64,000 bases of DNA from an uncultured Pseudomonadota bacterium (GCA_963774895.1 CAVZGN010000001.1:450419-514418); one strand, 5' to 3'; counted from the stretch's first letter, positions 13,425 to 61,052 are shown. The notes: a model not told the origin generated them from the letters alone. Program-made: numbers and translations.

Positions 13425-14672
13425 GCTTTGGGTTGCGATTTCAACTGATCGACGCAACACGCTAGATTCTGCGCGAGCAGAAGGAGGTGTTGCAAGTGAC
13501 ATACAGAACTCGGATTTATTACACCGAACGCCAGAAGGCCCTGATGTGGGAGCGCTGGCAGAAAGGGGAATCTCTCCAACAGATCGCCCAGCTGTTTGAC
13601 CGGTCGCACGGATCGGTCCACGGCATACTGGTTAAGACCGGCGGCATTCGCCCGAGGCCGCGCCGGCGTTCGCGTTTAGCGCTAAGCTTGGCGGAGCGTG
13701 AAGAGCTATCGCGCGCCGTAGCACAGGGCTTCTCATGTCGCTCGATCGCGCGCTCCCTGGGACGCGCACCCTCGAGTGTCAGCCGTGAGCTTAAACGCAA
13801 TGGCGGCCCGGGGTGCTACCGGGCGAGCCAGGCCGACCAGAGTGCTTGGGACCGGGGCCGCCGCCCCAAGGTCTGCAAGCTGGTCGAGCATCGAGCCTTG
13901 GCGCGCCTGGTGACCGACAAGCTGCAGTCATCCTGGTCGCCGGAGCAGATCGCCGGATGGCTGAAGCGGCGCTTTCCCGATGATGAGGGTCTGCAGGTGT
14001 CACACGAGACGATCTATAAGACTCTGTTCATCCAGGCGCGCGGGGCCTTGAAAAAAGAGCTGTTAGAGCACTTGCGGCGTAGCCGTGCCATGCGCCGTTC
14101 ACGCCATCACACCCAGAAGACCGATGACCATGGCCGGATCCTGAACGCCGTGTCGATCCGCGAGCGTCCGGCCACCGTCGAAGACCGTGCGGTGCCGGGC
14201 CACTGGGAAGGCGACTTGCTGTTCGGCAACCAGCGCAGCCAGATTGCCACCCTGGTCGAACGGCATACCCGCTATGTCATGCTGGTGAAAGTCGCGAGCA
14301 AAGATACCGAGACCGTCATCAGCGCATTGATCAAACATGCCCATAAGCTGCCGCAGGAGCTCTATAAATCCTTGACCTGGGATCGCGGCAAAGAGATGGC
14401 CGACCACCAACGCTTCACCCTGGCGACGGATGTCAAAGTCTACTTCTGTGATCCGCAAAATCCCTGGCAACGTGGCAGTAACGAGAATACCAACGGGCTA
14501 CTGAGGCAGTACTTTCCTAAGGGCACCGATCTGTCGGTGTACTCGCAGGCTAAACTCAACGCAGTCGCCAGGCAGTTAAATGAGCGGCCGAGGAAGACGC
14601 TGAACTATGAAACGCCGGCTGAACGCTTTGGCCAATGTGTTGCGTCGATCAGTTGAAACCGCAGTCGGAAGC
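13425..14672 (+). mobile_element. IS30-family insertion sequence, copy A
   Basis: The 1248-bp unit is shared with 23129-24376 at an offset of 9704. All track ORFs inside are identical in both copies (389, 93, 70, 123 aa). The imperfect terminal IRs are gctttgggttgcgatttcaactgatcgacgcaacac and, as reverse complement, gcttccgactgcggtttcaactgatcgacgcaacac. The inner 26 nt resemble the IS30 IR as I remember it. Confidence 0.9.
13496..14656 (+). CDS. IS30-family DDE transposase
   Basis: There is an N-terminal HTH region, and PGHWEGDLLFG plus the downstream D/E residues are typical of IS30 transposases. The aaggagg SD at 13481-13487 favours GTG 13496; the track ORF starts at 13487. Confidence 0.9.
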   Translation: MTYRTRIYYTERQKALMWERWQKGESLQQIAQLFDRSHGSVHGILVKTGGIRPRPRRRSRLALSLAEREELSRAVAQGFSCRSIARSLGRAPSSVSRELKRNGGPGCYRASQADQSAWDRGRRPKVCKLVEHRALARLVTDKLQSSWSPEQIAGWLKRRFPDDEGLQVSHETIYKTLFIQARGALKKELLEHLRRSRAMRRSRHHTQKTDDHGRILNAVSIRERPATVEDRAVPGHWEGDLLFGNQRSQIATLVERHTRYVMLVKVASKDTETVISALIKHAHKLPQELYKSLTWDRGKEMADHQRFTLATDVKVYFCDPQNPWQRGSNENTNGLLRQYFPKGTDLSVYSQAKLNAVARQLNERPRKTLNYETPAERFGQCVASIS

Positions 14673-14730
14673 GGTCGTTCGCAGCGAAACGTTATCAGAC
14701 CTGTTTCTCCAATCGAATGCATTGACGTTC

Positions 14731-16251
14731 TCATCCAAGTACAGATGATGCCATGGAATCCACTCGGTTATTGGTCCTGAATTGATTCGCACTTTCTTGA
14801 TCACCTCCTGCCGCACTGAGCAGGTACATGGCAGCGTACGCACGCCAGGGCTTCCAGGTTTCAGCACGTCGTAGTATTGCCTCTCGCAATGGGTTAGTGC
14901 TAATTATAGGCTGTAGTACCCGATGTCCAATCGGAAACGCGTCCGGGTCATTAAGTGCACGCATCGCAATATATTGAATAGTAGGTTCTTCAATATCTTT
15001 GATGTCTTTTAATTTGGCTAGGAGTTGGTCAAGAGATGTGTCAGCCCCAGACATGGTCACGGCCTGCGCAGCGGTCCGAATTGTGCGTGCACATGATGAC
15101 GGTAGGCATGAAAGACGGGCGCTGGCCAGTGTCTTAGTTTGCGGAAAAATACGGGAAAACTCCTGCGTATCAGAAGATGCCATTGGTTCACCAAAACACT
15201 CGACCAATCGACCTGCCAGCATCCCGGCCTCGTGCAAAGGGAAGTGCTGACTTAAAATTGCATGCACGATGAGCTCAAAACTATCCCAAGTTCCAGGTAT
15301 CCGCATTCCTGGATGACGTCGTAATAGGTGTACCAGTAAGCGATCGCGACCTAAGTGCTTGCAGATAACTTCCGGATCTGCAGCCAAGTCAAACATCGCA
15401 CGCACCCGTGTGACGATCTGAAGCAAACATTCCGGTTGAGGGAATCGGATGTGAGCTCGCAACATATGGGTGCCGGCCATCGGTCTTACTTCTAGAATTC
15501 CATGATGATCGTGGATTGCGATACTGCGGCGATAAATGCCCTTCGTTATTGATTCCACCCCGGGCGTCAAACTAGCGGTAAGGTATGTCAGCAGTGAGTT
15601 CCAATTGTACGGCGGGCGGTAAGCCAGATGAAATACATACTCGTCTGGGACTCGAGAGTGAAGGCCCATGCGCCGCAATTCGGAAGGTGGGCGCCCATAG
15701 CATTTATGAAAAACCTCATTAAATCGCCGGATACTTCTGAAACCAGAAGCCATCGCGATTTGGGCCATAGACAGATTGGTATCACTAATTAACTGCTTGG
15801 CAAAATGCAGTCGTCGCGTCTGGGCAACAGTCGTGGGTAATGCCCCCAAATGCCGCAAAAACAGTCGTGACAGGTGGCGCGCACTCATTCCAAGGCGGTT
15901 TGCGAGCATTTCTACATTACCTTCATCCAATGCACCCTCGGCAATGAGTCGCAGGCCGCGGTTTACGGTGGCCGATGTTCCATTCCAGGCAGGTGTGCCT
16001 GGCGCCACTTCCGGGCGGCAGCGCAGACAGGGGCGAAATCCGGCTTGGGTCGCCGCCGCGGCCGAGGGGAAATACCGCACATGCACACGTTTTGCATGTG
16101 GCGAGGGGCAAATAGGTCTGCAATAGATGCCTGTGGACGTGACTCCAATAAACACACGTCCGTCAAAACGCGCATCCCGATTGAGCCGCGCTTGCTCGCA
16201 TGTTTGTTCGTCTAGTAGTTCCACTTGGCAATCCAAGCTTAGAGAACACAC
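14731..16251 (-). CDS. Ada-type Zn-finger / AraC HTH / AlkA (DNA-3-methyladenine glycosylase II) fusion protein
   Basis: The N-terminus DARFDGRVFIGVTSTGIYCRPICPS...GFRPCLRCRPE is an Ada Zn-binding domain. The AraC HTH is MSARHLSRLF...IAMASGFRSIRRFNEVF. The C-terminus is HhH-GPD-like (IQYIAMRALNDPDAFP). Confidence 0.8.
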   Translation of the reverse strand: MCSLSLDCQVELLDEQTCEQARLNRDARFDGRVFIGVTSTGIYCRPICPSPHAKRVHVRYFPSAAAATQAGFRPCLRCRPEVAPGTPAWNGTSATVNRGLRLIAEGALDEGNVEMLANRLGMSARHLSRLFLRHLGALPTTVAQTRRLHFAKQLISDTNLSMAQIAMASGFRSIRRFNEVFHKCYGRPPSELRRMGLHSRVPDEYVFHLAYRPPYNWNSLLTYLTASLTPGVESITKGIYRRSIAIHDHHGILEVRPMAGTHMLRAHIRFPQPECLLQIVTRVRAMFDLAADPEVICKHLGRDRLLVHLLRRHPGMRIPGTWDSFELIVHAILSQHFPLHEAGMLAGRLVECFGEPMASSDTQEFSRIFPQTKTLASARLSCLPSSCARTIRTAAQAVTMSGADTSLDQLLAKLKDIKDIEEPTIQYIAMRALNDPDAFPIGHRVLQPIISTNPLREAILRRAETWKPWRAYAAMYLLSAAGGDQESANQFRTNNRVDSMASSVLG

Positions 16252-16605
16252 TGGTCATTCTACTGACATAGATTCTTCTTCGGCTAGCCGTTTTCAGACG
16301 TTATTGTCTTTGGTTCGTTGTTTCGCCTAGACACTATGGTTTGCACTGTTGAATGTTGGGGCGAAGGTGGAAACATTGCCCGCAGGCACGTCTCACATAT
16401 GAGTGACCATGAGAGACCGTAATTTGATACACATTGAGGTCCTAATACCGCCAGCAATTAAATGCGTTCGGCCTAGTATTTTGTCGCAGGGTGACGAATG
16501 TGCTCTCCGAATTGAAATGCATCGCATACGTAACCTGTCAGTGCTCGCGATCCCACCCTGGAGTCAATTCAAAGTGTTGAGTTGGATTTCGTAAAGGAGA
16601 AAATT

Positions 16606-17835
16606 ATGAATATCAAATTTATATCCAGACTATGTTTGATGTCGGCCGCCCTGCTATTCGCTCGCAGCGCCTATGCTGGCAATTCCGAAAACACGCTTTA
16701 TCAAGTAATTAACCTCGGAAATCCGCTTGGTGGCGCTTTGAGCCAAGGCACCAGCAATAATCAGCCGGGACAGGTTCTTGGATTTTCCACCTTTCCGAGT
16801 ACCTACATCATGCACGCGGAGCTATGGCGGGATAACTCTGCGCATGATCTTGGCACGCTGGGCGGACCCAACAGCGCGGTGGCTTGGCCGAATCGTAACG
16901 ATCACGGCGTGATCGTGGGCATATCCGAGACTACCAACCTGCAGCCTCTGGGTGAGCTATGGAGCTGTTACCTGGCGGTTTTCTACTACGCCGACGGGCA
17001 TGTGTGCCGCGGATTTGTTTGGCAGGATGGGGTGATGACCACGCTTCCCACCTTGGGAGGCGACAACGGCTTTGCGACTGGTGTCAATAACAGCGATCAG
17101 ATTGTGGGCTGGGCCGAAAATACCAATCATGATCCCACCTGCGGCGAGTACACGAATAATAACCAGGTACTGCAATTCGAGGCTGTCATGTGGACGCGAC
17201 AGAATGGTCACTATCAAGCGAGCGAACTACCCCCCTATCCCGGCGATATGGACGGTGCGGCCACGGCAATCAATCAGGAAGGCCAAGTCGTGGGTATTAC
17301 AGGCATCTGTGACGGCGCAATCGGAGGCGCAACGGCTGAGCATATGGTGATGTGGCAGAACGGGAGAGTGGTCCGTGAGTTGCCGACGTTGGGCGGTGCT
17401 TACTGGAATACACCCATGGACATTAACAACCGCGGAAACGTCGTTGGATTTTCCGATCTTCCCGGCGATGGGCCGACGATTGGTGACGCGAATTTCCAGG
17501 CCTTTTTCTGGTCTACAAAGCCTTTCATTTGCAACGACAAGCGAATCACGGGCACTTGCAACCTGGGTGCGCTTCCGGGCGACAGCATAAGTGAAGCCCT
17601 AGGAGTCAATGATCGGGACCAGGTCGTGGGCGTGTCATTTCCTTCGGGTCACGCATTCATTTGGCAAGACGGCGTGATGACGGATATCAATACCCTGCTG
17701 GCGCCGGGTACCACGTTGGTACTCACCGATGCCCAGGATATCAACGACCAAGGTGAGATTACCGGTCAAGCATATGACTCCAATACCGGCACAACTGTCG
17801 CGTTTAAAGCGATTCCCACGCGTACGGCACATTGA
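16606..17835 (+). CDS. secreted HAF-repeat protein
   Basis: ATG 16606 follows an aaggaga SD, and the signal peptide is ...ARSAYA. Repeated units (H/G)A(F/V)xWxxG...LxTLGG...A.xINxxGQVVG are present, including HAFIWQDGVMTDINTL. Confidence 0.75.
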   Translation: MNIKFISRLCLMSAALLFARSAYAGNSENTLYQVINLGNPLGGALSQGTSNNQPGQVLGFSTFPSTYIMHAELWRDNSAHDLGTLGGPNSAVAWPNRNDHGVIVGISETTNLQPLGELWSCYLAVFYYADGHVCRGFVWQDGVMTTLPTLGGDNGFATGVNNSDQIVGWAENTNHDPTCGEYTNNNQVLQFEAVMWTRQNGHYQASELPPYPGDMDGAATAINQEGQVVGITGICDGAIGGATAEHMVMWQNGRVVRELPTLGGAYWNTPMDINNRGNVVGFSDLPGDGPTIGDANFQAFFWSTKPFICNDKRITGTCNLGALPGDSISEALGVNDRDQVVGVSFPSGHAFIWQDGVMTDINTLLAPGTTLVLTDAQDINDQGEITGQAYDSNTGTTVAFKAIPTRTAH

Positions 17836-17986
17836 GAACCCGGCTTAGACCGCGCCTCGCTGACGTCGAGTCGGAACGCGAGGAAGTGTGGTAATCAATG
17901 CCATAGCATGGGGGCAGGATAATATCCTGTCCCCATTTTTAAGATTGAACATAGAAATGAAATCCCCTCAAAATCGGAGATCAGTC

Positions 17987-18430
17987 ATGAGTACGAACTT
18001 TCAGCGCGGAATACTGCTGGGTATTGCGGCGATTCTCTTGTTCGCTGCATTGACGATCAGCGCTTCCACTTCGCCCTTTGTAGGCTCTATCATGACGGAG
18101 CACGCTGCATTGTATCTGAATATAGATCAGCGAGCCCCCCAAATCTGGCCTGTGGAGATCTGGGCCGTGGGCGGAGTTCTGAGCAACCGGTCGAACCAAG
18201 GGGTGCTGTGGATCCGGCCCGGTGTCTACACTTTCACGCTGCGTGTCAGCCAGGCAGTGAACCTAGCCGACGTGCCAGGGCTCGCCCGTTCTGCAGGTTA
18301 TAGTCGGACTGAACATGAACTGAAGCTGCAGGCACAAATGGGCAAAGCGTATTACATCGGCGCCAAATTCGAAGCCTCTGGCGTCTGGAAACCGGTGGTA
18401 TGGAAGGTCCGGGACATCAGCGCTAAGTGA
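17987..18430 (+). CDS. hypothetical membrane-anchored/secreted protein (147 aa)
   Basis: A ggaga SD lies 6 nt before ATG 17987. The N-terminal hydrophobic helix is GILLGIAAILLFAALTISA. Confidence 0.5.
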   Translation: MSTNFQRGILLGIAAILLFAALTISASTSPFVGSIMTEHAALYLNIDQRAPQIWPVEIWAVGGVLSNRSNQGVLWIRPGVYTFTLRVSQAVNLADVPGLARSAGYSRTEHELKLQAQMGKAYYIGAKFEASGVWKPVVWKVRDISAK

Positions 18431-18645
18431 GCGCTACTGCAAAGCTAAAACTTAGCTATCGAATTTATATAAAGATTTCTATGAAAAACTAGAAATGAAT
18501 AAGTTTTATTTCAAATAATGATCAGAGTTAACTTAATGGAGATGCGCTATAGATTATATAATTATTAATGTTCGAAAATTCGAAAGCTGACGAGCAGCAT
18601 TTATAACAGTACCAAACAATGTCCACACTAAAACTGGGAGATAGC

Positions 18646-19155
18646 ATGTGTAAATGGTTGCTCACGATCATCCTGCTGGGCCTCAGTTTGCCTGTCTTGG
18701 CAGTAACATCAACAGCTTGTACGGCTCCGGAATACAACCGACTCAATTTTTGGCTCGGAGACTGGGATACATACGAAGCAGACGGCAAGGGACCATCGGA
18801 AGCCAGCAATCACGTTACATCCATCTTGGGCGGCTGTGCCATCTTGGAACGTTACGAAGGGACTGACGGTCACATCGGGGAGAGCATGACTGTCTATGAC
18901 GCTTCACGGAACGTCTGGCACCAGACCTGGGTTACGAATCAAGGTCATCTCTTAGTATTGGAAGGGCACTTCAACGGCTTTATGCTCACGCTGGAAGGCT
19001 CTGAGATGAGTAATAATCACAAGCAAGAATTGATCCGTGGGACATGGTTACCGCAACTGGATGGGGTGCGCGAGACGGCGTATATATCCAAAGATGGCGG
19101 CAAAACTTGGAGTATAGATTTTGACATCCTTTTTAAGCCGCATCATGGAAAGTAA
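18646..19155 (+). CDS. secreted hypothetical protein (DUF1579-like pattern)
   Basis: A gggaga SD precedes ATG 18646, and a signal peptide is present. The pattern FWLGDWD...LGGCAILERYEG...MTVYD...WHQTWV resembles DUF1579-type beta-barrel proteins from memory. Confidence 0.5.
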   Translation: MCKWLLTIILLGLSLPVLAVTSTACTAPEYNRLNFWLGDWDTYEADGKGPSEASNHVTSILGGCAILERYEGTDGHIGESMTVYDASRNVWHQTWVTNQGHLLVLEGHFNGFMLTLEGSEMSNNHKQELIRGTWLPQLDGVRETAYISKDGGKTWSIDFDILFKPHHGK

Positions 19156-19706
19156 CAGTAGATTAATATTTACTAACCCTCACAGTGCATTAAATTCTTG
19201 TGATCTCATATTCGAAGGCTACTTTTTGAATGACTGCTACGGGTCGACTGCAGAACTTGAAGGAGTGAATCACCGATGCCGGATATTAAGTGCTGCATCC
19301 GGCCATAAGCAGCCGCTCGGGTTTTTGCACGTTGCCAAAATTATTGTGTCTGCGGTAATAAGCGAAGTCCAATTGGCCGAATTTGACCGTATGGGCTTCC
19401 GCGAGCCGCGCTGCCTAGTGAAGCAATTCCGAGCTTCTTCTTCCAGTGCCAACTTTCTACTAAGCGTTTGAGCGGTCAACGCATTTTGGCGTCCGTGCGA
19501 CTGCCACTTGCTACGACGCGTTTAAAGCCTGCGCTAAAAACGCAAATCTGCGACTTAATATTCGGATATACCTGTCGAATGTCTTCTACGCTGCTGAATC
19601 TGATTGCTTTCTATGTTAGGGGCCGGTCGCCTAGTAGACACGTGTAGAGCGTGGAGTATATTGAATTTGGACAGCAAGAGGTCGCGATACAAGGTCGTCT
19701 GTACTA

Positions 19707-22187
19707 ATGGTTGCGCCCAATATAATGTTAATCAAAGCCAGATTAACCTTCGATCGCATCCGCGACACTTGGATAAAATTTCCAGGGCATCTCCTGACCC
19801 TCGTCGCGATCTTCATTCTTGTGTTCCTCACAGTCCTCGTCATCTGTTATGCCGCGATCACCGTGCAGTCCGGCGTACGCGCATATGTAGCTGGCGAGGG
19901 ACAGTGGTCGAAATCGGAGAAGGATGCCTATATATATCTGTCGCGTTACGTCGACACCGGCGATGAGCGGTACTTTCGCCTCTTCCGTGAGCAGATGGCG
20001 GTACCAATAGGCGATCACGACGCCCGTCTTGCCATGCTCGTTCAAAATTTGGACTGGAAGGCGGCTACCGATGGTTTAATTCGTGGGCGTAATAGCCCGG
20101 CGGATATCCCAGTGATGATTCGCATGTTCCGCTACGCAGGTCGCATGCCATACATGGCGGACGCGATCGCTATCTGGACCAAAGCGGATCCCATTATGCT
20201 GCAATTGGCGGCCTTAGGGGAGCAAATACATGTGCTGCGCGCCAGCCAGCCCCGCAATCTGGGCCAGTTGCGCCAGCTGCGTCTGCGGGCATTCGCAATC
20301 AATTCCGAGTTGCGGCCAATGGAAGACGATTTCTCCGCCTCTCTTGCGTTAGGCGCTCAATTTATCAACAAGCTGCTGCTCGCTGTGGTCGCCTTAGGTG
20401 CTTTACTAGCCATGTTACTGGAGTTCTTGCTGGTGCGGCGTATCGTTCTCACGCTGCATGATTCGGAAACGAGATTCCGTGGGATGTTCGAGCAAGCAGC
20501 CGTCGGGCTGGCTCATATCTCGTTGGACGGCGTCATACTGCGTGTCAATGACAAGTATTGTGCGATCACAGGTCATAAGTACGATAACCTGATTGACCAT
20601 AGTTTTCTGCCCGTACTCAGTTCGAAAGATGCAGGCGACACTTGGCTGCATTGTGGCCGTCTGCTGCGCGTTGAAGAGCAGGAATACACCACCAGACTGC
20701 AGTTGGAGAAATCGGACCAGACGCGCTGGGCACGCATAACGCTGACCCTGGTGAAGAACACGAAAGGCGAACCCCTGTATTTCTTGAACGTGCTGGAAGA
20801 CATATCCAGGGAGCGGCGCCTCGGCGAACAACTGTCCTATCTGGCAACCCACGACGCACTTACGCAATTGGTGAACAGAGTCGAATATGAAAAACGCGTC
20901 AGCGTTGCTCTCGGCAAGGTAGCAAGCGGCGGAGACGCGGGGGCAGTGTTTTACCTGGATCTTGATCAATTTAAGGTGATCAACGACACCCTTGGACACA
21001 TGGCGGGTGATGAGCTGCTGCGACAGTTGGGCATGGAACTTAAGAACCGATTGCGGGCCGGCGATACACTGGCAAGGCTTGGGGGCGATGAATTCGGAGT
21101 ACTGCTGGAGGGCTGCCCGATCAGCGCGGCCAGCAACATCGCGGAAGGTATGCGCCGCACCGTGGACGAGATGGGTTTCGTTTGGAAAGGACGTGAATAT
21201 CGGGTCGGAGTCAGCATCGGCGTGGTTCCCGTGAAACCGGACACTGAGTCGGTACAGCAACTCCTGAGCGATGCGGACGAAGCCTGTTACATTGCCAAGG
21301 ATAAAGGCCGTAATTTGGTCTATATGCACGAGCCGAGCAGCGCACGTTCTATGCAACGGCAGCATGAGGTGCAGTCGGTGAACCGGTTACGTGAAGCGCT
21401 CGATGGTGAAGGATTGTTCCTCATGTTCCAAAGTATCCAACCGCTGCTTCTCACGCACACTACTGGCCTTCATTTCGAGATGCTGCTGCGCATGCGGCAA
21501 CCCTCGGGTGAGATCGTGACACCGGCATCCTTCTTGCCAGTGGCTGAAAGATACAACTTGGCTTACCGTGTGGATGAATGGGTGGTACGCAAAACTCTCG
21601 GCTGGCTATCCGATCACCTCAACGAAATTCACAAAATCATGCTTTGCAGCATAAACCTCTCTGCGCAGTCCCTAAATAACAGCCGCTTCCTGGAGTTCCT
21701 CGAATCAGAAATTTATCGCAGTGGTGTTCCGACTAACAAATTGTGCTTTGAACTTACGGAGATGAGCGCTGTGGCAGACATCGCCGTTGCCACCAAATTT
21801 ATCAACAGGATTCGTGACAAAGGCTGCCGCTTCGCGCTGGATGACTTTGGCGGTGGCATGTCCTCGTTCGCCCACCTGCATGCTCTGCCGGTGGATATAA
21901 TCAAGATCGATGGCTCGTTCATTCGGGACATGGACCGAGATTCCGTCAATCGTGCGTTGGTGTCGTCCATTAACGACATCAGCCACATACCAGGCAAGCT
22001 CACGATTGGTGAATTTGTGGAGACCGACTCCATCCTTGAAGCTGCGCGCGAGCTCCAGCTGGACTATGCCCAAGGCTATGCCGTAGCCAAGCCCAGCGAC
22101 CTCTCGGATCTCTTCAATCGAGTCGCGAAAGAGAGCCTCACACTTGAAGGCCCACTGTCAGCGCCAGGAAAGAATCCGGCGACCTAA
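19707..22187 (+). CDS. membrane-anchored PAS-GGDEF-EAL c-di-GMP signalling protein
   Basis: 826 aa. GGDEFGVLL marks the GGDEF domain. The EAL domain shows CFELTEMSAV, DDFGGGMSS and KIDGSFIRD. A PAS-like segment lies after the TM region. Confidence 0.9.
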   Translation: MVAPNIMLIKARLTFDRIRDTWIKFPGHLLTLVAIFILVFLTVLVICYAAITVQSGVRAYVAGEGQWSKSEKDAYIYLSRYVDTGDERYFRLFREQMAVPIGDHDARLAMLVQNLDWKAATDGLIRGRNSPADIPVMIRMFRYAGRMPYMADAIAIWTKADPIMLQLAALGEQIHVLRASQPRNLGQLRQLRLRAFAINSELRPMEDDFSASLALGAQFINKLLLAVVALGALLAMLLEFLLVRRIVLTLHDSETRFRGMFEQAAVGLAHISLDGVILRVNDKYCAITGHKYDNLIDHSFLPVLSSKDAGDTWLHCGRLLRVEEQEYTTRLQLEKSDQTRWARITLTLVKNTKGEPLYFLNVLEDISRERRLGEQLSYLATHDALTQLVNRVEYEKRVSVALGKVASGGDAGAVFYLDLDQFKVINDTLGHMAGDELLRQLGMELKNRLRAGDTLARLGGDEFGVLLEGCPISAASNIAEGMRRTVDEMGFVWKGREYRVGVSIGVVPVKPDTESVQQLLSDADEACYIAKDKGRNLVYMHEPSSARSMQRQHEVQSVNRLREALDGEGLFLMFQSIQPLLLTHTTGLHFEMLLRMRQPSGEIVTPASFLPVAERYNLAYRVDEWVVRKTLGWLSDHLNEIHKIMLCSINLSAQSLNNSRFLEFLESEIYRSGVPTNKLCFELTEMSAVADIAVATKFINRIRDKGCRFALDDFGGGMSSFAHLHALPVDIIKIDGSFIRDMDRDSVNRALVSSINDISHIPGKLTIGEFVETDSILEAARELQLDYAQGYAVAKPSDLSDLFNRVAKESLTLEGPLSAPGKNPAT

Positions 22188-22504
22188 TCAAACTGCCCGT
22201 TCACGCGTCATGCATGGAGAACTCGTGCTGACACGCTCAGTTCACCCAGGGCTTCCAGCACTAGCTGTGTGTCGGGGCTTCAGCGGTTTGGGTGTTTAGG
22301 GATCGCCCGCGCGGTGCCCAGGTGGGACATGCGGATACGTAAAATACGCAAGTAGATAAAGCTACCACTTAAATTAGCATAGACCCATGTTATCTGCTCA
22401 TTTACATAAACGACCGCAATGGGTCGGGAGCAGAAGTGGAGGGAGTAGAATCTCATGGATGCTGGAAGTACTACTGGAATATTACCTACAAAGGAGACCA
22501 AATT

Positions 22505-22978
22505 ATGCGCCGTCATATCATATTCAATTCAATCTTGCTTAGCCTGACGATCCTGCTGACTGTTGCTGCCCCATCTTCCGCGCTGGCAAAGAAAAGCGCC
22601 GATACGAAACAACCTTTTCAGACACAGATGAGCCTAAACTTGGCAGACGGTATCAGCGGAGCTAACGCTGCCGTTACTATTCCATCTGGCAAGCGGCTAG
22701 TAATCCAATATGCCTCTGCATGGGCTCAGACACCGAGTGGACAGACAGTGACGTTCACGATCCAGACGATGCTCAATGATGCCACGAAATTCACACCACA
22801 TTACCTGCCCGCTGTCCAACAAAATTCAGATGCCATCAATGAGATTTTCATTGCTGGCACGGCTGTCCACCTTTACGCTGATGCACCCCAGGTGATGCTG
22901 CGAGTCGATCGTGGTTCGGTTATCACCGGTGCAGTGATAGCGTACATTTCTATATCCGGATACCTCATAGACCAATAA
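22505..22978 (+). CDS. secreted hypothetical protein (157 aa)
   Basis: An aaaggaga SD precedes ATG 22505, and the signal peptide is ...APSSALA. I recognise no family. Confidence 0.5.
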   Translation: MRRHIIFNSILLSLTILLTVAAPSSALAKKSADTKQPFQTQMSLNLADGISGANAAVTIPSGKRLVIQYASAWAQTPSGQTVTFTIQTMLNDATKFTPHYLPAVQQNSDAINEIFIAGTAVHLYADAPQVMLRVDRGSVITGAVIAYISISGYLIDQ

Positions 22979-23128
22979 ATATTTATAGACGATGAGTGTT
23001 GTTTTTAGGTGCATCCAAGGACGCAGGGGGTCACGAAGTGGCGCTGAATTTTCATAATGATTGTATTTGAGGCGAGTTTGTTGGTGGTGCAGAAATAATT
23101 ATTACTGGGTCAAAATCGGTTAATGGCT

Positions 23129-24376
23129 GCTTTGGGTTGCGATTTCAACTGATCGACGCAACACGCTAGATTCTGCGCGAGCAGAAGGAGGTGTTGCAAG
23201 TGACATACAGAACTCGGATTTATTACACCGAACGCCAGAAGGCCCTGATGTGGGAGCGCTGGCAGAAAGGGGAATCTCTCCAACAGATCGCCCAGCTGTT
23301 TGACCGGTCGCACGGATCGGTCCACGGCATACTGGTTAAGACCGGCGGCATTCGCCCGAGGCCGCGCCGGCGTTCGCGTTTAGCGCTAAGCTTGGCGGAG
23401 CGTGAAGAGCTATCGCGCGCCGTAGCACAGGGCTTCTCATGTCGCTCGATCGCGCGCTCCCTGGGACGCGCACCCTCGAGTGTCAGCCGTGAGCTTAAAC
23501 GCAATGGCGGCCCGGGGTGCTACCGGGCGAGCCAGGCCGACCAGAGTGCTTGGGACCGGGGCCGCCGCCCCAAGGTCTGCAAGCTGGTCGAGCATCGAGC
23601 CTTGGCGCGCCTGGTGACCGACAAGCTGCAGTCATCCTGGTCGCCGGAGCAGATCGCCGGATGGCTGAAGCGGCGCTTTCCCGATGATGAGGGTCTGCAG
23701 GTGTCACACGAGACGATCTATAAGACTCTGTTCATCCAGGCGCGCGGGGCCTTGAAAAAAGAGCTGTTAGAGCACTTGCGGCGTAGCCGTGCCATGCGCC
23801 GTTCACGCCATCACACCCAGAAGACCGATGACCATGGCCGGATCCTGAACGCCGTGTCGATCCGCGAGCGTCCGGCCACCGTCGAAGACCGTGCGGTGCC
23901 GGGCCACTGGGAAGGCGACTTGCTGTTCGGCAACCAGCGCAGCCAGATTGCCACCCTGGTCGAACGGCATACCCGCTATGTCATGCTGGTGAAAGTCGCG
24001 AGCAAAGATACCGAGACCGTCATCAGCGCATTGATCAAACATGCCCATAAGCTGCCGCAGGAGCTCTATAAATCCTTGACCTGGGATCGCGGCAAAGAGA
24101 TGGCCGACCACCAACGCTTCACCCTGGCGACGGATGTCAAAGTCTACTTCTGTGATCCGCAAAATCCCTGGCAACGTGGCAGTAACGAGAATACCAACGG
24201 GCTACTGAGGCAGTACTTTCCTAAGGGCACCGATCTGTCGGTGTACTCGCAGGCTAAACTCAACGCAGTCGCCAGGCAGTTAAATGAGCGGCCGAGGAAG
24301 ACGCTGAACTATGAAACGCCGGCTGAACGCTTTGGCCAATGTGTTGCGTCGATCAGTTGAAACCGCAGTCGGAAGC
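23129..24376 (+). mobile_element. IS30-family insertion sequence, copy B (identical to copy A)
   Basis: See copy A. The flanks diverge immediately outside 23129 and 24376. Confidence 0.9.
23200..24360 (+). CDS. IS30-family DDE transposase
   Basis: The translation is identical to that of 13496..14656. Confidence 0.9.
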   Translation: MTYRTRIYYTERQKALMWERWQKGESLQQIAQLFDRSHGSVHGILVKTGGIRPRPRRRSRLALSLAEREELSRAVAQGFSCRSIARSLGRAPSSVSRELKRNGGPGCYRASQADQSAWDRGRRPKVCKLVEHRALARLVTDKLQSSWSPEQIAGWLKRRFPDDEGLQVSHETIYKTLFIQARGALKKELLEHLRRSRAMRRSRHHTQKTDDHGRILNAVSIRERPATVEDRAVPGHWEGDLLFGNQRSQIATLVERHTRYVMLVKVASKDTETVISALIKHAHKLPQELYKSLTWDRGKEMADHQRFTLATDVKVYFCDPQNPWQRGSNENTNGLLRQYFPKGTDLSVYSQAKLNAVARQLNERPRKTLNYETPAERFGQCVASIS

Positions 24377-25383: not shown

Positions 25384-25576
25384 GTTACAGACTCCTGAAA
25401 CTACTGGTTGGCCGCCCCGAAGGCGGCTGGAAAGGTTGCGTACTATACGGATTTGGGCCGGCCCGCGCAACGCGGTTGAAGGTTGAAGCACGCCTGCGCC
25501 GGTTTGCGTGGCAGCGACGGCGGAAGGCCGGTATCATGCAGGCCACAGAATAGTTTGGTTTTTGGGATCGCGTTCC

Positions 25577-27142
25577 ATGTCTCGCGCACTCTTCAAGGCC
25601 ACCTCCCTGGTGGGAGGTATGACCCTCATCTCGCGCATCCTGGGCTTCGCCCGGGACATGGTGCTGGCGCGCTATTTTGGCGCCGGTACCGTCATGGACG
25701 CATTCTTCGTGGCCTTCAAGATTCCCAACTTCATGCGTCGCACCTTCGGCGAGGGCGCCTTCTCGCTGGCTTTCGTGCCGGTGATCTCGGAATACAAGAC
25801 CACGCGCGAGCATCATGAAGTCCAGGAACTGGCGGACCAGGTAGCCGGCACTCTGGGTCTGGTGCTGGTCGGGATCACCGTTATCGGCGTGATTGCCGCA
25901 CCGGTGCTGGTGTGGATCTTCGCGCCCGGGTTCAGCGTCAACCAGAGCAAGTACGACCTGACGGTCGCCATGGTGCGGGTGACGTTTCCCTATCTGTTGT
26001 TCATCTCGCTGACGGCCTTCGCCGGCGGCATCCTCAACACCTATGGCAAATTCGGCGTGCCGGCCTTCACGCCGGTAATCCTTAATATAGTGATGATCGC
26101 CGCCGCCATCTGGCTGGCACCGCATATGGCCAACCCCGGCATGGCGCTGGCCTGGGGCGTGTTCATCGCCGGCGTGCTGCAACTGCTATTTCAGGTGCCG
26201 TACCTGTTCAGGCTCAAACTCATGCCGCGTCCGAAACTCTCGGAGGGCCACGAGGCGGTGAAGCGCATCATGAAACTCATGCTGCCGGCGCTGTTCGGTT
26301 CCTCGGTGTCGCAGATCAACATGGTGGTGGACACGGTGATCGCATCGTTCCTGGCCACTGGCAGCGTCAGCTGGTTGTACTATTCCGACCGCCTGATGGA
26401 ATTCCCGCTGGGGGTATTCTCCATCGCGCTGGGCACCGTGATCCTGCCGAACATGGCGCAGCACTTCGCGGCGAAATCTGACGCCGGGTTCTCGGCGACA
26501 CTGGACTGGGCGCTGCGGCTCACGGCGGTGGTGGTGGTGCCGGCGGCGGTCGGTCTGTTGTGCCTGTCCGGGCCAGTGCTGATCACGCTATTCCATTACG
26601 GCCAATTCAATACATTGGATGCGCGCATGGCTACCGTCAGCCTATCGGCATATGCCTTCGGCCTTTTGGGATTCACACTGGTGAAAGTCTTCGCACCTGG
26701 ATTCTATGCGCGCCAGGATACGCGCACCCCGGTCAAGATCGGCGTGATCTCGGTGGTCGCCAACATCGTGCTCAACATCATGATTACCATCCCCTGGGCC
26801 ATGAGCGGCGTCAGCGCGCCGCACGCAGGACTGGCGCTGTCCACATCACTGGCGGCGTTCATCAATGCCTGGCTGCTGTACCGCGGTCTGCGGCGTCTGG
26901 GCGTATATAGCCCGGCCCCGGGTTGGAAGCCTTTGGCATGGCGGGTGCTGATCGCCAACTTGGCGATGGGTGGGCTGTTGTGGCTGGGCAGCGGCAATCT
27001 GGATGTGTGGCTGGGCCGTAACGCCATGCACCGCGGACTGTGGCTGGCGTTCTGGATACTGGCAGCGATGGCAATGTATTTTCTGGTGCTGTTCCTCAGC
27101 GGTTTTCGCCTGCGGCATCTGCGGCGGGTGCCAGCCGCCTAG
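25577..27142 (+). CDS. murJ: lipid II flippase MurJ (MviN)
   Basis: ATG 25577 gives MSRALFKATSLVGGMTLISRILGFARD, the canonical MurJ N-terminus. The protein is polytopic. Confidence 0.9.
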   Translation: MSRALFKATSLVGGMTLISRILGFARDMVLARYFGAGTVMDAFFVAFKIPNFMRRTFGEGAFSLAFVPVISEYKTTREHHEVQELADQVAGTLGLVLVGITVIGVIAAPVLVWIFAPGFSVNQSKYDLTVAMVRVTFPYLLFISLTAFAGGILNTYGKFGVPAFTPVILNIVMIAAAIWLAPHMANPGMALAWGVFIAGVLQLLFQVPYLFRLKLMPRPKLSEGHEAVKRIMKLMLPALFGSSVSQINMVVDTVIASFLATGSVSWLYYSDRLMEFPLGVFSIALGTVILPNMAQHFAAKSDAGFSATLDWALRLTAVVVVPAAVGLLCLSGPVLITLFHYGQFNTLDARMATVSLSAYAFGLLGFTLVKVFAPGFYARQDTRTPVKIGVISVVANIVLNIMITIPWAMSGVSAPHAGLALSTSLAAFINAWLLYRGLRRLGVYSPAPGWKPLAWRVLIANLAMGGLLWLGSGNLDVWLGRNAMHRGLWLAFWILAAMAMYFLVLFLSGFRLRHLRRVPAA

Positions 27143-27180
27143 ATGGGCACATACCTTATATATAATCACGGGCACTGGTC

Positions 27181-28107
27181 ATGGAGCTGATCCGCGGTCT
27201 GGTCAATCTCAAGCCGCGACATCGCGGCTGCGTCGCCAGCATCGGCAATTACGACGGCGTGCATCTGGGCCACCAGCACGTACTGAAGCAATTAGTCGGC
27301 CATGCGCGTGAGCACGCGCTGCCGGCGACGGTGGTGGTGTTCGAGCCCACGCCACAGGAATATTTCGCCGCCGCCGCGCCGCCGGCGCGCCTCATGAGCT
27401 TTTGTGAGAAATGGCAGGCGCTGGCGCGACACGGCGTGGACCGGGTGGTGTGCCTGCGTTTCGATCGCCGGCTCGCCGAGACGCTGGCCGAGACGTTCAT
27501 CGAGCGCGTGCTGATCCACGGCTTGGGCGTGCGTCATCTGGTGGTGGGTGACGATTTCCGTTTTGGCCGCGACCGGGCCGGCGATTTCGCCATGCTTAAG
27601 ACGGCCGGTGAGGTCCATGGGTTCGAGGTGCAGGCGGCGCGCACACTGAGCGTGGCGGGAAAACGGGTGAGCAGCGGACGCATTCGCAGATACCTGGCTA
27701 CCGGCGATCTGGAATCCGCGGCCCGCATTCTGGGCGCGCCGTTTTCAGTCAGCGGACGGGTAGTCCACGGCGACCGGCTCGGGCATGCCCTGGGATACCC
27801 GACGGCGAATATCCCGCTGAAGCGGCGGGTCTCGCCGGTGCACGGCATCTTCGTGGCGGCAGTCCATGGCATCGGCGGCGCTTCACGCCAGGCAGCCGCC
27901 TATGTGGGCAACCGGCCGGCGGTCGGAGGCAGACACGAGATGCTGGAGGTTTTCGTGTTCGATTTCGACGGCGAACTGTACGGACAGCGCCTTAAAGTGC
28001 AATTGCTGCACCAGTTGCGCGCGGATGCCAGTTTCGCAAACATGGAAGCCCTCAAGACGCAGATGACGCGAGACATGGACGCGGCGCGCGCCTGGCTGCG
28101 ACACTAG
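27181..28107 (+). CDS. ribF: bifunctional riboflavin kinase / FAD synthetase
   Basis: 308 aa. IGNYDGVHLGHQ is the FAD synthetase motif, and the C-terminal riboflavin kinase pattern is PTANI...GIF.... Confidence 0.9.
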   Translation: MELIRGLVNLKPRHRGCVASIGNYDGVHLGHQHVLKQLVGHAREHALPATVVVFEPTPQEYFAAAAPPARLMSFCEKWQALARHGVDRVVCLRFDRRLAETLAETFIERVLIHGLGVRHLVVGDDFRFGRDRAGDFAMLKTAGEVHGFEVQAARTLSVAGKRVSSGRIRRYLATGDLESAARILGAPFSVSGRVVHGDRLGHALGYPTANIPLKRRVSPVHGIFVAAVHGIGGASRQAAAYVGNRPAVGGRHEMLEVFVFDFDGELYGQRLKVQLLHQLRADASFANMEALKTQMTRDMDAARAWLRH

Positions 28108-28149
28108 GGCATGAACTGGGGTGACGGGCATTATTTAAAAAACACAGGC

Positions 28150-30981
28150 ATGACAGTGAGCAACTATAAAGACACCCTGAATCTACCGCGCACCGCCTTC
28201 CCCATGAAGGCCAATCTGCCGGTGCGCGAACCGGAACTGCTGAAACACTGGCAGCAACAGGACGTGTACCAGCTGCTACGCAAAGCGCGCGCCGGCCGGC
28301 CCAAGTTCGTCCTGCTGGACGGACCGCCCTACGCCAACGGTAACATCCACATCGGCCACGCGGTCAACAAGATCCTCAAGGACATGGTGGTCAAATTTCG
28401 CGGGCTTGACGGAATGGATGCGCCTTACGTGCCCGGCTGGGACTGCCACGGTCTGCCCATCGAGCAGCAGGTGGAGAAAAAGATCGGACGGGTGGGCCAG
28501 AAAGTGGACGCCAAAGCGTTCCGGGCCGCCTGCCGCGCGTATGCACAGGAGCAGGTAAACCGCCAGCGCGCGGATTTCAAACGCCTGGGAGTGTTTGGCG
28601 ACTGGGAGCACCCGTACCTGACCATGGATGCCAGCTATGAAGGCAACCAGTTGCGGGCCCTGGGAGAGGTGATCCGGCGCGGACACCTATATAAAGGTCT
28701 CAAGCCGGTGCACTGGTGCCTGGAATGCGGATCGGCGCTGGCGGAAGCGGAGGTTGAATACGAGGACAAGGTCTCGCCGTCCATCTACGTGATGTTTCCG
28801 GTGGCGGATGAGAAAGCATTCCTAGCAAAAATGCAGCATGGAAAATTTCTTGGTGATGGGCCGTTAGCTGTACTTGTTTGGACCACTACACCTTGGACAT
28901 TACCAGCAAATCAAGCTGTTGCACTTCGTCCTGGATATACTGAGTATTCTTTATTACAAATTAAAATTAATGATAAGCCAATACGCATTTTAGTTGCCAC
29001 ATCTTTGGAGGATGTGATCGCAAAGAAATGTGGATTTATTATCCAAGGAGCGTCAGCAAGAGCGAGAGGCGATGATCTGGAGGGTTTGAAACTCAAACAT
29101 CCATTTTATGATCGCATCGTACCCATCGTGCTGGGCGAGCACGTAACCCTGGATGAGGGCACCGGCGCGGTGCATACCGCTCCGGGTCACGGTCGCGAGG
29201 ACTTCGCCCTGGGCATCCAGTACGACCTGCCGCTGGAGAATCCGGTGGACAGCCATGGGATTTTCGTACCCGGCACGCCGCTGTTTGCCGGCGAGCAGGT
29301 GTTCAAGGCCAATGAGCACATCATCGAAGTGCTGCGCGAGCACGGTACGCTGTTGCAACATGCACCATACACGCATAGCTATCCGCATTGCTGGCGGCAC
29401 AAGACGCCGGTGATTTTCCGCGCCACACCCCAATGGTTCATTGGCATGGACCAGAATGGCCTGCGCCAACAGGCGCTGGAAGAAATCAAGAAGGTTAAGT
29501 GGACACCGGGCTGGGGCGAGCAACGCATCGAGGGCATGGTGGCCAATCGTCCCGACTGGTGCGTGTCACGCCAGCGCACCTGGGGCGTGCCGATCGCCTT
29601 GTTCGTGCACAAGCACAGCGGCGAACTGCACCCGCGCACTGCGGAGCTCTTGGAGCAGGTGGCGCAGAAAGTGGAAAAACACGGCATCGATGTCTGGTTC
29701 GATATGCAGGCGGCGGAACTCCTGGGCAAGGACGCGGACCAGTACGAGAAAGTGCCTGACATCCTGGATGTGTGGTTCGATTCCGGCGTGGCACATTATT
29801 GCGTGGGGGAAAAGCGCCTCGGCATCGGCGTCAACCAAAAAGCCGATTTATATTTGGAAGGCTCCGACCAGCACCGCGGCTGGTTCCAATCCTCGCTACT
29901 GACCTCGGTGGCCATGCGCGGCCAGGCGCCGTACCAGGGCGTGCTTACCCATGGGTTCACCGTGGACGAGCAGGGCCGCAAGATGTCCAAATCCCTGGGC
30001 AACGTGATCGCGCCCCAAGACGTCATCAAGCATCTGGGCGCCGACGTGCTGCGCCTGTGGGTGGCGGCCACGGACTATAGCGGCGAACTCTCGGTATCCA
30101 ACACCATCCTGGAGCACATGGCGGAAGCCTATCGCAAGATGCGCAACACCCTGCGTTACTTGCTGGCGAACCTCTACGATTTCGATCCGGCGGCGAATGC
30201 GGTGCCGGCGGCTGACATGCTGATGCTGGACCAGTGGCTGCTGGAGCGCGCGCGGCAGTTGCAGCAGGAGGTGCGTTCGGCCTATGAGCGCTATGAATTC
30301 CATCACATCTACCAGAAGATCTATCACTTCTGCGTGGTGGATCTTTCCGGTTTCTATCTGGATGTGGTCAAGGACCGTGAATACACCACCCAAGCTGACA
30401 GTCCGGCACGGCGCTCCTGCCAGACGGCCATGTGGCAGGTGGCGGAAGCCATGCTGCGCTGGCTAATGCCGATCCTGAGCTTCACCGCCGAGGAAGCCTG
30501 GGGCTTCATGCCCGGCAAACGTACTGCCTCGGTTTTCCTGGCCACCTGGCATGAACTTCCGCCGGCTACCGGTGTGGACCAGGGGCTTTGGCAGACGCTG
30601 CTGAAAGTGCGCGAGTCGGTGAAGAAGGAGCTGGAATTTCTGCGCATGATGGGCAGCATCGGTTCACCCCTGGATGCGGAAGTGGATCTGTATTGCGATC
30701 CGGAGCTCGCCAACAAGCTGCGGCCACTCGGCGAGGAACTGCGCTTTCTGTTCATCACTTCATATGCGCGTACCCACGCCGCCGACCAGCGACCGGCGGA
30801 TGCCAAAGCCTCCGAAGAACTGCCCGGTCTGTGGGCGGTGGCACATGCGTCCACACACACCAAGTGCGTGCGCTGTTGGCACCATCGGGAGGATGTGGGC
30901 AAGAATCAGGAACATCCGGAACTCTGTGGCCGGTGTGTGCAGAACGTCTCAGGTAAGGGTGAAGTCCGGAGGTTCGCATGA
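28150..30981 (+). CDS. ileS: isoleucine--tRNA ligase
   Basis: [23 protein letters not shown]. The HIGH motif is [17 protein letters not shown] is present, and there is a C-terminal Zn-finger (CVRCWHH...CGRC). A low-GC patch lies at about 28811-29112. Confidence 0.95.
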
Positions 30982-31493
30982 ATGTACCTGCTGGCAAGCT
31001 GAGTACCGCGGGTTACGGCGCCTGGCGATGGCTGTGGTTATCTGCGGCAGTCATCGTAGTGGATCGGATCAGCAAATACCTGATTGCCGGCCATCTGGGC
31101 CTGTACGACTCCATCGTGCTGCTGCCGGTATTCAACCTGACGCTGTTGCACAACAGCGGTGCCGCCTGGAGTTTCCTCGCTGGCGCGTCCGGCTGGCAGC
31201 GCTGGGTTTTCATTGTTCTGGCGCTGGCGGTGAGCGTGGGCATCATTGTGTGGCTGCGTTATCTGCCAGGTAGGCAGCACCGCTGGCGCGCGGCGGCACT
31301 GTCGTTGATATTGGGCGGCGCACTCGGAAATGTCATCGACCGTTTAGGACATGGCTACGTCATCGATTTCATCCAGGTCCATTACCACAGCTGGTATTTT
31401 CCGGCTTTTAATCTGGCGGATTCTGCCATCACCGTCGGTGCCATCATGCTGATCTTCGAAGGGCTGCGGTCGGACCAGCGAAGCGTAAAATAG
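30978..31493 (+). CDS. lspA: lipoprotein signal peptidase II
   Basis: 171 aa with an ATGA overlap with ileS. Motifs [10 protein letters not shown] and [10 protein letters not shown] are present. Confidence 0.9.
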
Positions 31494-31497
31494 CCTC

Positions 31498-32448
31498 ATG
31501 GATATATTGCTTGCCAATCCGCGTGGTTTTTGTGCCGGTGTCGACCGTGCCATCGAGATCGTGGAGCGCGCTTTGGAGATCCACGGCGCGCCCATCTACG
31601 TGCGTCATGAAGTGGTGCATAACCGGTATGTGGTGGAACGCCTGCGCGATAGGGGTGCGGTGTTCGTGGATGAACTGCACGAGGTCCCGGACGATGCCAT
31701 CGTGATCTTCAGCGCCCATGGGGTGGCGCGCGCGGTGCGTGACGAAGCCGAACGCCGTGGTCTGCGCATATTCGACGCCACCTGCCCGCTAGTGACCAAG
31801 GTGCATCTGGAAGTCAGCCGCTATGCGCGCGCCGGCCTGGATGTGGTGCTCATTGGCCACCAGGGTCATCCGGAAGTGGAGGGCACCATGGGCCAGTTCG
31901 ATACCCGCTTCGGCGGCGCGATCCATCTGATACAGACGCCGGAGGATGTCGGCAAGCTCCAGGTACGCGATCCGGCGCGCGTGACTTTCGTGACCCAGAC
32001 GACCCTGTCGGTGGACGATACTGCGCGCATCATCGAGGCGCTGCGCCGGCGATTTCCGGACATCCAGGCACCGCGCAAAGACGACATCTGCTATGCCACC
32101 CAGAACCGCCAGGATGCGGTCAAGCAATTGGCGCGCGCCTGTGAAGTATTGCTGGTGGTGGGTTCGCGCAACAGTTCCAATTCCAACCGTCTCAGAGAGA
32201 TCGCGGCAAGCGAAGGCGCAACTGCTTATTTGATTGACGGGCCGGACGACATCCGGCGCGCATGGGTGGAGGGTAAAGAGCGTGTGGGCGTGACCGCCGG
32301 TGCATCAGCGCCCGAGAGCATCGTCCAGAAAGTGGTGGCGCGTCTGGGTGAATGGGGTGGTGCCAGCGTCCATGAGACGCATGGCATACCGGAGCATATG
32401 GTGTTCGCCTTGCCCAGGGAATTGCGCAAACCGCTAACCAGCACTTGA
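31498..32448 (+). CDS. ispH: 4-hydroxy-3-methylbut-2-enyl diphosphate reductase
   Basis: [19 protein letters not shown]...VRHEVVHN...TCPLVTKVH is the LytB/IspH signature. Confidence 0.95.
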
Positions 32449-33674: not shown

Positions 33675-33750
<76 letters not shown>

Positions 33751-58277: not shown

Positions 58278-58964
58278 ATGAACTGGGCCCAGGTCGAAGA
58301 ATACCTGAAGAAGGATGACCGGGCGGTGCTGCCCATCGGCAGCACCGAGCAGCATGCCCAGCTGAGCCTGTGTGTGGACTATATCCTCTCCGAACGGGTG
58401 GCCGTGGAAGCCGCGGAACCCCTGCAGGTGCCGGTATTCCCCGGGGTGCCTTACGGCATCACGCCTTATTTCATGGGTTATCCGGGCACCGTCAGCCTGA
58501 GCGCGGATACCTATGTGCGGGTGATACGCGACATCCTGGACAGCCTGGCCACCCATGGATTCAAGCGCATCGTCATGGTCAACGGGCACGGTGGCAACAC
58601 GCCGGTGCAGGCCGCTCTCAAAGAATGGCTGGCTGCCCATCCGGGCGTGACGGTGAAATTCCACAACTGGTGGAATGCGCCGGCCACCTGGAAAAAGGTC
58701 ATGGAGATCGATCCGCTGGCGTCGCACGCTTCGTGGATGGAAAACTTCCCATGGACCCGGATCGCGGGCGTGGATATTCCGACAGAACAAAAGTCCATGA
58801 TCGACATCGCGCGCATCCGCTCACTGGATCCGGCTGCGGCCAGACGCCACATCGGCGACGGCAATTTCGGCGGCTACTACCAGCGTTCCGATGAGGACAT
58901 GCTGGCTGTGTGGCGCACCGGGGTCGAAGAGACGCGCCAGGTGATCACCAATGACTGGACGTGA
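58278..58964 (+). CDS. creatininase-family amidohydrolase
   Basis: ATG 58278. AVLPIGSTEQHAQLSL and IVMVNGHGGN are typical of the creatininase family. Confidence 0.75.
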   Translation: MNWAQVEEYLKKDDRAVLPIGSTEQHAQLSLCVDYILSERVAVEAAEPLQVPVFPGVPYGITPYFMGYPGTVSLSADTYVRVIRDILDSLATHGFKRIVMVNGHGGNTPVQAALKEWLAAHPGVTVKFHNWWNAPATWKKVMEIDPLASHASWMENFPWTRIAGVDIPTEQKSMIDIARIRSLDPAAARRHIGDGNFGGYYQRSDEDMLAVWRTGVEETRQVITNDWT

Positions 58965-60941: not shown

Positions 60942-61052
60942 GGCGACGGCAATTTCGGCGGCTATTACCAGCGTTCCGATGAAGAGATGCTGGCCGTGTG
61001 GCGTACCGGGGTCGAAGAGACGCGCCAGGTGATCGCGGATAGCTGGACGTGA
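60942..61052 (+). pseudogene. relic 3' end of a creatininase-family gene (diverged duplicate of 58854-58964)
   Basis: 111 nt align without gaps to 58854-58964 with ~11 mismatches by eye, including the TGA. No 5' part precedes it. Confidence 0.75.

Follow-up and report, generated by a model that had tools for sequence, protein, structure and literature searches.

Mosaic forms of penA and pbp2x in Neisseria and Streptococcus are the classic recombination mosaics of housekeeping or target genes. For the aminoacyl-tRNA synthetases (aaRS), homeoalleles have been described as entire genes that share very little identity, about 29% in the case of the two types of threonyl-tRNA synthetase (ThrRS) (Andam and Gogarten, Biol Direct 2011, PMC3191353). 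In isoleucyl-tRNA synthetase (IleRS), the eukaryote-like ileS2/mupA horizontally replaces ileS and confers mupirocin resistance (PMC10485003, PMC4861432). Here we examine a segment of about 0.3 kb inside ileS, referred to as the patch, in a stretch of 64,000 nucleotides (the window) from an uncultured Pseudomonadota bacterium (GCA_963774895.1, CAVZGN010000001.1:450419-514418). Judged by sequence comparison, the patch is a real recombination mosaic, and the explanation that we favour, with a probability of roughly 0.7, is that related bacteria exchanged it through homologous recombination.

The ileS patch resembles the penA and pbp2x mosaics in being an in-frame, co-linear internal block whose conserved flanks would serve as anchors and in which composition and phylogeny switch together; it is unlike them in that the block is old and present in several lineages, its donor was not found, and there is no link to drug resistance or to a known selective agent. 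Among the marks of a mosaic gene, conflicting phylogenies, supported and coincident breakpoints and a co-linear replacement were all found, and an identifiable donor lineage was not. With the aaRS homeoalleles (PMC3191353) the locus shares divergent forms of identical function, distributed patchily among relatives within an exchange group, at conserved synteny and with recombination in conserved flanks. Unlike those homeoalleles, the exchange involves only 102 of 941 codons, the allele classes defined below are 56–66% identical in protein, and there is no whole-gene replacement, the rest of ileS following its neighbour genes. With ileS2/mupA it has in common the enzyme family and an IleRS evolution shaped by gene transfer; however, the window IleRS is of type 1, and the exchanged part lies in the CP1 domain, not in the mupirocin-binding catalytic site. 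The ileS mosaic adds a further instance to a phenomenon already known. It offers a clean natural case in which homologous recombination would have reshuffled a sub-domain of an essential and highly conserved gene of translation, among lineages only 77–91% identical in protein, and in which several descendants can retain a codon signature of foreign origin.

The gene and the segment under study are as follows.

28156..30981, + strand: ileS, type-1 isoleucyl-tRNA synthetase (assigned from TIGR00392, Pfam, solved structures and the database protein P0001)
28807..29112, + strand: low-GC3 segment read as recombinant, class A allele (102 codons, 306 bases; GC3 0.25; residues 218–319 of 941)

The third-codon-position GC (GC3) is 0.25 within 28807–29112 and 0.77 in the rest of ileS, the limits being those of a two-breakpoint maximum-likelihood fit of GC3. 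The log-likelihood ratio (LLR) of this trough was 53.1, whereas codon shuffles (n = 100) averaged 6.2 and did not exceed 11.6. In 20-codon windows GC3 ranged between 0.05 and 0.40 across the patch and was about 0.8 outside it, with GC at positions 1 and 2 near 0.5; overall G+C was 0.397 for 28811–29112 and 0.612 on either ileS flank. GC at first positions (GC1) was 0.53 in the patch versus 0.66 outside, and FYMINK content 0.26 versus 0.20. The lowest 40-codon GC3 window of ileS reached 0.12, while the other window genes with GC3 of at least 0.65 never fell below 0.43. A sequence-only reading of the window had reported an abrupt drop in composition at about 28811–29112, with G+C counts of 35/60 (28681–28740), 18/60 (28921–28980) and 22/60 (28981–29040). 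These counts proved exact and the drop was confirmed, lying almost wholly in third positions; the frame is open throughout, the peptide quoted for the patch is correct and its TTPWTLPAN motif is present. The sliding analysis of GC and codon usage proposed in that reading returned a sharp GC3 trough and a codon usage unlike that of core genes, the relative synonymous codon usage of the patch correlating with that of core genes at r = −0.37 and with that of the window's low-GC island genes at r = 0.42.

Phylogenetic evidence was obtained by comparing the patch with the ileS flanks and with the neighbouring genes, in the order murJ-ribF-ileS-lspA-ispH.

25508..28107, + strand: murJ and ribF, of native composition (Pfam families of the syntenic genes in relatives), used as a species-tree proxy
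30978..32448, + strand: lspA and ispH, of native composition, neighbours likewise used as a species-tree proxy

The proteins closest to the window IleRS are 77–89% identical to it and come from uncultured gammaproteobacterial metagenome-assembled genomes (MAGs) and soil-type metagenomes; DNA was compared for 14 relatives (L001–L005 and L085–L093). In murJ, ribF, the ileS flanks, lspA, ispH and the downstream gene, nucleotide identity to the window ranks L002 > L085 > L086 > L001, L003, L087 > L088, L004 > L005. The patch ranks differently, with L001 (77%) > L003 (75%) > L088 (72%) > L002 and L085 (68%), and no nucleotide match to it was detectable in L086, L087 or L004. A sliding similarity plot showed the switch of partner exactly over q214–q311 (in q numbering, codon 1 of the window protein is the one at nt 28153, immediately before the GTG start). 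On informative sites, with five parent pairs, max-chi-square delimited a segment running from 28800–28814 to 29067–29139, and the observed value was reached in none of 200 permutations.

The trees are in conflict. In neighbour-joining bootstraps the flanks place the window with L002, L085 and L086 at 97–100%; for the patch this grouping has 0%, and the window instead joins L001, L003 and L088 at 99% on all nucleotides. The latter grouping retains 41–79% when amino acids, codon positions 1+2 or purine/pyrimidine (RY) coding are used and, because it survives these treatments, the conflict is not just an attraction by shared composition. The compositional and the phylogenetic breakpoints coincide, and both adjoin two highly conserved blocks. 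The recombination tests and the separate comparison of patch and flanks that the sequence-only reading had called for both bear out exchange, with L002, L085 and L086 nearest in the flanks and L001, L003 and L088 nearest in the patch. Its inference of an in-frame recombinational replacement from an AT-rich donor stands as regards the replacement, and the AT-rich donor was not found.

The trough is shared by several relatives, as follows.

q219–320: window, GC3 0.25, LLR 53
q228–320: L001 (P0003), GC3 0.38, LLR 27
q268–319: L003 (P0006), GC3 0.27, LLR 22
q233–304: L088 (P0012), GC3 0.28, LLR 31.5

L089, a second contig encoding P0012, likewise has the trough; L001, L003 and L088 are other sub-lineages of the same uncultured gammaproteobacterial clade as the window. 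No GC3 segment above the null range was seen in ten close relatives (L002, L085, L086, L087, L004, L005 and L090–L093). Nor is there a general trough in ileS: in 78 other gammaproteobacterial ileS from species-representative genomes the patch-minus-rest GC3 was about 0.00, and over all 83 loci tabulated it averaged 0.00 (standard deviation 0.07, homologous 101 codons), with only L001 and L003 departing strongly. In the codon alignment, invariant residues are encoded in the carriers by shared AT-ending codons (ACA, CCT, TTA, CAA, CTT) and in non-carriers mostly by ACG, CCC, TTG, CAG and CTG. Since the carriers share these synonymous codons, their troughs are homologous and, since the trough occurs in at least three other lineages of the clade, it represents an old allele class, not a fresh import. 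The same low-GC segment in close relatives, with a congruent phylogeny, had been named in the earlier reading as the sign of a lineage-wide compositional quirk; the segment is indeed present in relatives, but congruence is lacking, its distribution being in conflict with the flank phylogeny.

Between the two conserved blocks the clade contains at least three divergent allele classes. Class A, of low GC3, is found in the window, L001, L003 and L088/L089; class B, GC-rich, in L002, L085 and L086; and class C, also GC-rich and with a 2-codon insertion and a 1-codon deletion, in L087, P0010, P0013 and others. The three classes are spread over three flank sub-clades, all within the murJ-ribF-ileS-lspA-ispH synteny. 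Class A carriers are 71–78% identical to each other in nucleotides, and the patch has a lower GC1 and a higher FYMINK content than class B.

Most of these relatives are metagenome-assembled genomes, and an assembly chimera, in which a patch from a co-occurring organism was joined into the contig, has to be considered on that account. Such a chimera would need in-frame entry and exit at homologous positions within 306 bp, in a source contig of 918,908 bp. A trough of this kind recurs at that position in contigs of other samples that were assembled separately (L001, L003 and L088), and any alternative assembly path with the two flanks in common would amount to a recombinant allele present in the population. 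An artefact of assembly is unlikely, and the chimera seems to us very improbable.

The conserved blocks and motifs that surround the breakpoints are as follows.

28735..28806, + strand: conserved 5′ homology anchor, adjoining the breakpoint upstream (amino acids nearly invariant, nucleotide identity high in all relatives)
28879..28911, + strand: conserved TTPWTLPAN-containing motif inside the patch (codon alignment; amino acids invariant across the clade)
29158..29193, + strand: conserved motif shortly downstream of the patch, its codons GC-rich and native (codon alignment)

The 5′ block is SPSIYVMFP, and the motif at 29158..29193 together with HPFYDR forms the conserved 3′ homology anchor. 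The TTPWTLPAN-containing motif, which we take to be the threonine-rich motif of the IleRS editing site, is encoded in the window by AT-ending codons (ACT ACA CCT TGG ACA TTA CCA GCA AAT); other carriers have AT-ending codons at only part of these positions, and GC-type relatives mostly have ACC ACG CCC TGG ACC TTG CCG GCG AAC. The patch occupies the N-terminal half of the CP1 editing domain, with editing and catalytic motifs intact, and the PF13603 editing-domain match covers residues 310–365 of a query starting one codon upstream of the GTG. The CP1 domain of IleRS is the site of post-transfer editing (PMC4861432). The patch region is the least conserved part of the enzyme, at 35–50% identity versus 62–66% elsewhere across Gammaproteobacteria, and at 55–81% versus 87–91% in the rest of IleRS within the close clade.

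This low conservation after the TTPWTLPAN motif would suit an acquired insertion module (a lineage-specific insertion, an intein or a mobile element), as the sequence-only reading had suggested. The codon alignment refutes it: class A aligns without gaps to class B in the trough-less L002, L085 and L086, so that the replacement is co-linear with length and frame unchanged, and length differs only in class C, which has no trough. No direct or inverted terminal repeats were found at the patch boundaries and no extra Pfam domains in the IleRS; neither the extra length, nor the terminal repeats, nor a homing or transposition gene that would mark an intein, insertion sequence (IS), miniature inverted-repeat transposable element (MITE) or intron is present. 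The chance that the patch is such a module is, in our view, practically nil.

The ratio of nonsynonymous to synonymous divergence (dN/dS) was 0.08–0.17 in the patch and 0.07–0.17 in the flanks, with no sign of positive selection in either, and the chimeric IleRS is under purifying selection. Both dN and dS are about 1.5–2 times higher in the patch than in the flanks and, as both are raised, older allele lineages are indicated.

AT-rich codons might also be kept by selection on the DNA or mRNA, for slow translation at the entry to CP1, for low structure, or as a binding site or internal regulatory element. Four diverged copies at GC3 0.25–0.38 despite dS above 1, a persistence beyond the neutral amelioration estimate given below, are what this explanation would predict. 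However, the ten close relatives and the 78 other gammaproteobacterial ileS have no trough. Within the patch we found no promoter-like or terminator-like sites, no Rfam match and no unusual RNA folding (z = −0.98), and no other-frame open reading frame (ORF) of at least 100 aa overlaps more than its last 60 bases. Known translation pause clusters are far shorter than 100 codons, so that the length of the patch also speaks against it, and selection on codons would leave the conflicting phylogeny unexplained. We regard it as improbable.

The source of the patch was sought at several levels. In protein, the patch is 78% identical to P0003, 76% to P0006 and 73% to P0012. Outside the clade, an exhaustive phmmer search of 1.84 billion representatives gave best matches of 46–52% identity, the representatives being 50%-identity clusters and the search therefore blind to an in-clade donor. 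A search with a 181-aa fragment returned only fragments of up to 317 aa, at most 58% identical, and appears to be length-matched and so uninformative on full-length donors; one with the 105-aa patch returned only 28 short candidates, missed the self protein and is uninformative on full-length donors. A metagenome scan with the patch peptide gave chance matches among the matches listed, including the irrelevant locus L084, and is uninformative on the donor; a scan of viral contigs for the patch peptide in degenerate DNA gave no matches. A scan of the genome collection missed the source species, its best hit being 78% identical. Within the window there is no second copy of ileS or of the patch that could act as a source of gene conversion, and a literature search on ileS mosaics found nothing directly relevant. 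Because the patch is nearest to the window's own clade and about 50% identical or less to anything elsewhere, a distant donor appears unlikely on these comparisons.

Under the exchange that we favour, the conserved blocks on either side would supply the sequence identity needed for recombination, and the variable stretch between these anchors would be swapped as a cassette. The window lineage would once have been of class B, as its closest relatives are today, until a class A segment replaced the class B one. Class A would have resided for long in a lower-GC genome, where it would have acquired its AT-ending codons together with a GC1 that is a little lower and a FYMINK content that is a little higher, and it would not yet have equilibrated to the host GC3 of 0.77. 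As no donor match was found outside the clade, we infer that the AT-rich source was an unsampled relative, a lower-GC member or a sister of the same clade. The chimeric enzyme would work as a normal housekeeping IleRS. With respect to direction, a single gain of class A in the window lineage is the most parsimonious solution, since the window is nested among class B relatives.

Several observations weigh against this account. The donor sequence was not found, the clade's own members being nearer to the patch than any of the cluster representatives or database fragments searched. All the sampled clade members have GC3 of about 0.71–0.84 outside the patch, which leaves the low-GC relative postulated here a hypothetical one. 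Parsimony is the ground for the direction of transfer, together with the node joining the window and L002, which has only 74% support. Class A pairs have dS of 1.1–2.3, higher for the most diverged pair, and still the class A copies show GC3 of 0.25–0.38 within their own segments; an amelioration model predicts at least 0.31–0.40 since the lineage splits, even starting from 0. The model is crude, with two states and a calibration on flank synonymous sites, and we do not treat it as decisive. The shortfall favours either a number of imports after the splits, drawn independently from an AT-rich reservoir that had diversified, or selection maintaining AT, and it is a small question, of amelioration versus selection, why AT-rich codons have lasted in four diverged copies. 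An amelioration estimate making the window copy the youngest class A was dropped, as L003 and L088 are equally AT-rich in their shorter segments.

Class A may alternatively be ancestral, one very old import that the window retained while class B or C overwrote it in other lineages. It is present in each of the three flank sub-clades, the deep branch of L088 among them; the synonymous divergence between class A copies exceeds that of the flanks, implying an old coalescence; and the shorter troughs of L003 and L088 resemble partial overwriting. On the other hand, the window stands amid three class B relatives, for which at least two overwrites would be needed as against one gain, and its GC3 of 0.25 falls short of the rough amelioration estimate. 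Several recombination events would still be required, with only the direction different and the process the same. We judge an ancestral class A unlikely, although it is the alternative that carries most weight with us. Doubtful too, and rated somewhat lower, is the idea that in this clade the N-terminal half of the editing domain has long persisted as an exchangeable cassette, with class A not decaying after its transfer but actively maintained, through selection on translation or mRNA or through a distinct editing or inhibitor-binding phenotype; if it held, class A would amount to a ‘homeoallele’ of sub-genic size, kept by balancing selection within an enzyme essential for translation.

In all other respects the product of the window ileS is, on its sequence, an ordinary type-1 IleRS. 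The protein scored 934.1 bits against the TIGR00392 ileS equivalog (cut-off 621.4) and contains the Pfam domains tRNA-synt_1, Anticodon_1 and zf-FPG_IleRS, the last (PF06827, residues 904–930) representing the C-terminal zinc-binding domain. The class I motifs HIGH and KMSKS (RKMSKSLGN) are canonical, as expected of IleRS1. The nearest solved structures, matched over the full length, are the IleRS chains 8c9e/8c9f (889 bits) and 1ffy (814 bits), and the 1032-aa chains 8c8u–8c9d gave only about 330 bits, which places the protein with the IleRS1-type structures, these chains being sorted into IleRS1 and IleRS2 by our reading of PMC10485003. A bearing on antibiotics, raised in the sequence-only reading through mupirocin, found no support: the enzyme is of type 1, MupA (312.8 bits) and MupB (298.8 bits) lie far below the cut-off of 1900 for the mupirocin-resistant IleRS2, and the patch is in CP1, away from the mupirocin site. 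The view of the patch as a resistance determinant is thus unsupported, with no evident bearing on antibiotic resistance.

The ORF around ileS has 956 codons (28111–30981, + strand). The true start is probably the GTG at 28156, as in P0001 and all relatives, giving a protein of 941 aa (VSNYKD...). In-frame ATG codons at 28111, where the mechanical ORF begins, and at 28150 are possible alternatives. P0001, encoded on the contig of 918,908 bp, is 100% identical to the window IleRS, patch included.

Further exchanges within ileS are suggested by other members of the clade. In L003 (P0006), q220–q267 has intermediate GC3 with class B-like codons and residues (GDTEYVLLQT), and the 3′ part is class A, which suggests a secondary recombination inside the patch; the nested trough boundaries of the four carriers likewise point to repeated or secondary exchanges. 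L087 (P0007) appears to be a larger ileS mosaic, its first ∼650 alignment columns being 95–100% identical to P0010/P0013, and its last ∼300 columns 87–98% identical to P0003/P0006 and 47–68% to P0010/P0013. These alignments suggest that ileS has undergone intragenic exchange repeatedly in the clade. Phylogenetic or typing work sometimes employs ileS as a marker, as do checks of MAG quality, and a cassette of this kind can distort trees and composition-based screens for transfer.

Outside the clade, L080 (a Sedimenticola sp. MAG) shows the opposite anomaly, the 101 homologous codons having a GC3 of 0.80 as against 0.65 for the remainder of the gene, and in L029 and L047 the patch-minus-rest GC3 is +0.11. 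These offsets may mean that this segment was exchanged in other lineages as well.

Elsewhere in the window, about 21 kb of genes of low GC (gene GC 0.39–0.57, GC3 0.34–0.71, versus ∼0.75–0.8 in core genes) come after a tRNA-Thr(cgt) gene at 33675–33750, and the region 33675–54800 has the look of a genomic island, or of a prophage, with the tRNA gene as its integration site. A sequence present in two direct copies, 100% identical, begins at 13425 and again at 23129, with a spacing of 9704 bp. Each copy holds a 389-aa ORF (13487–14656 and 23191–24360), the two matching in length and composition statistics, and the copies bracket a lower-GC block at 14.7–23 kb, so that 13425–24360 resembles a composite transposon bounded by IS elements. 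A further direct repeat of 111 nt, whose copies are 91% identical, lies at 58854–58964 and 60942–61052, 2088 bp apart.

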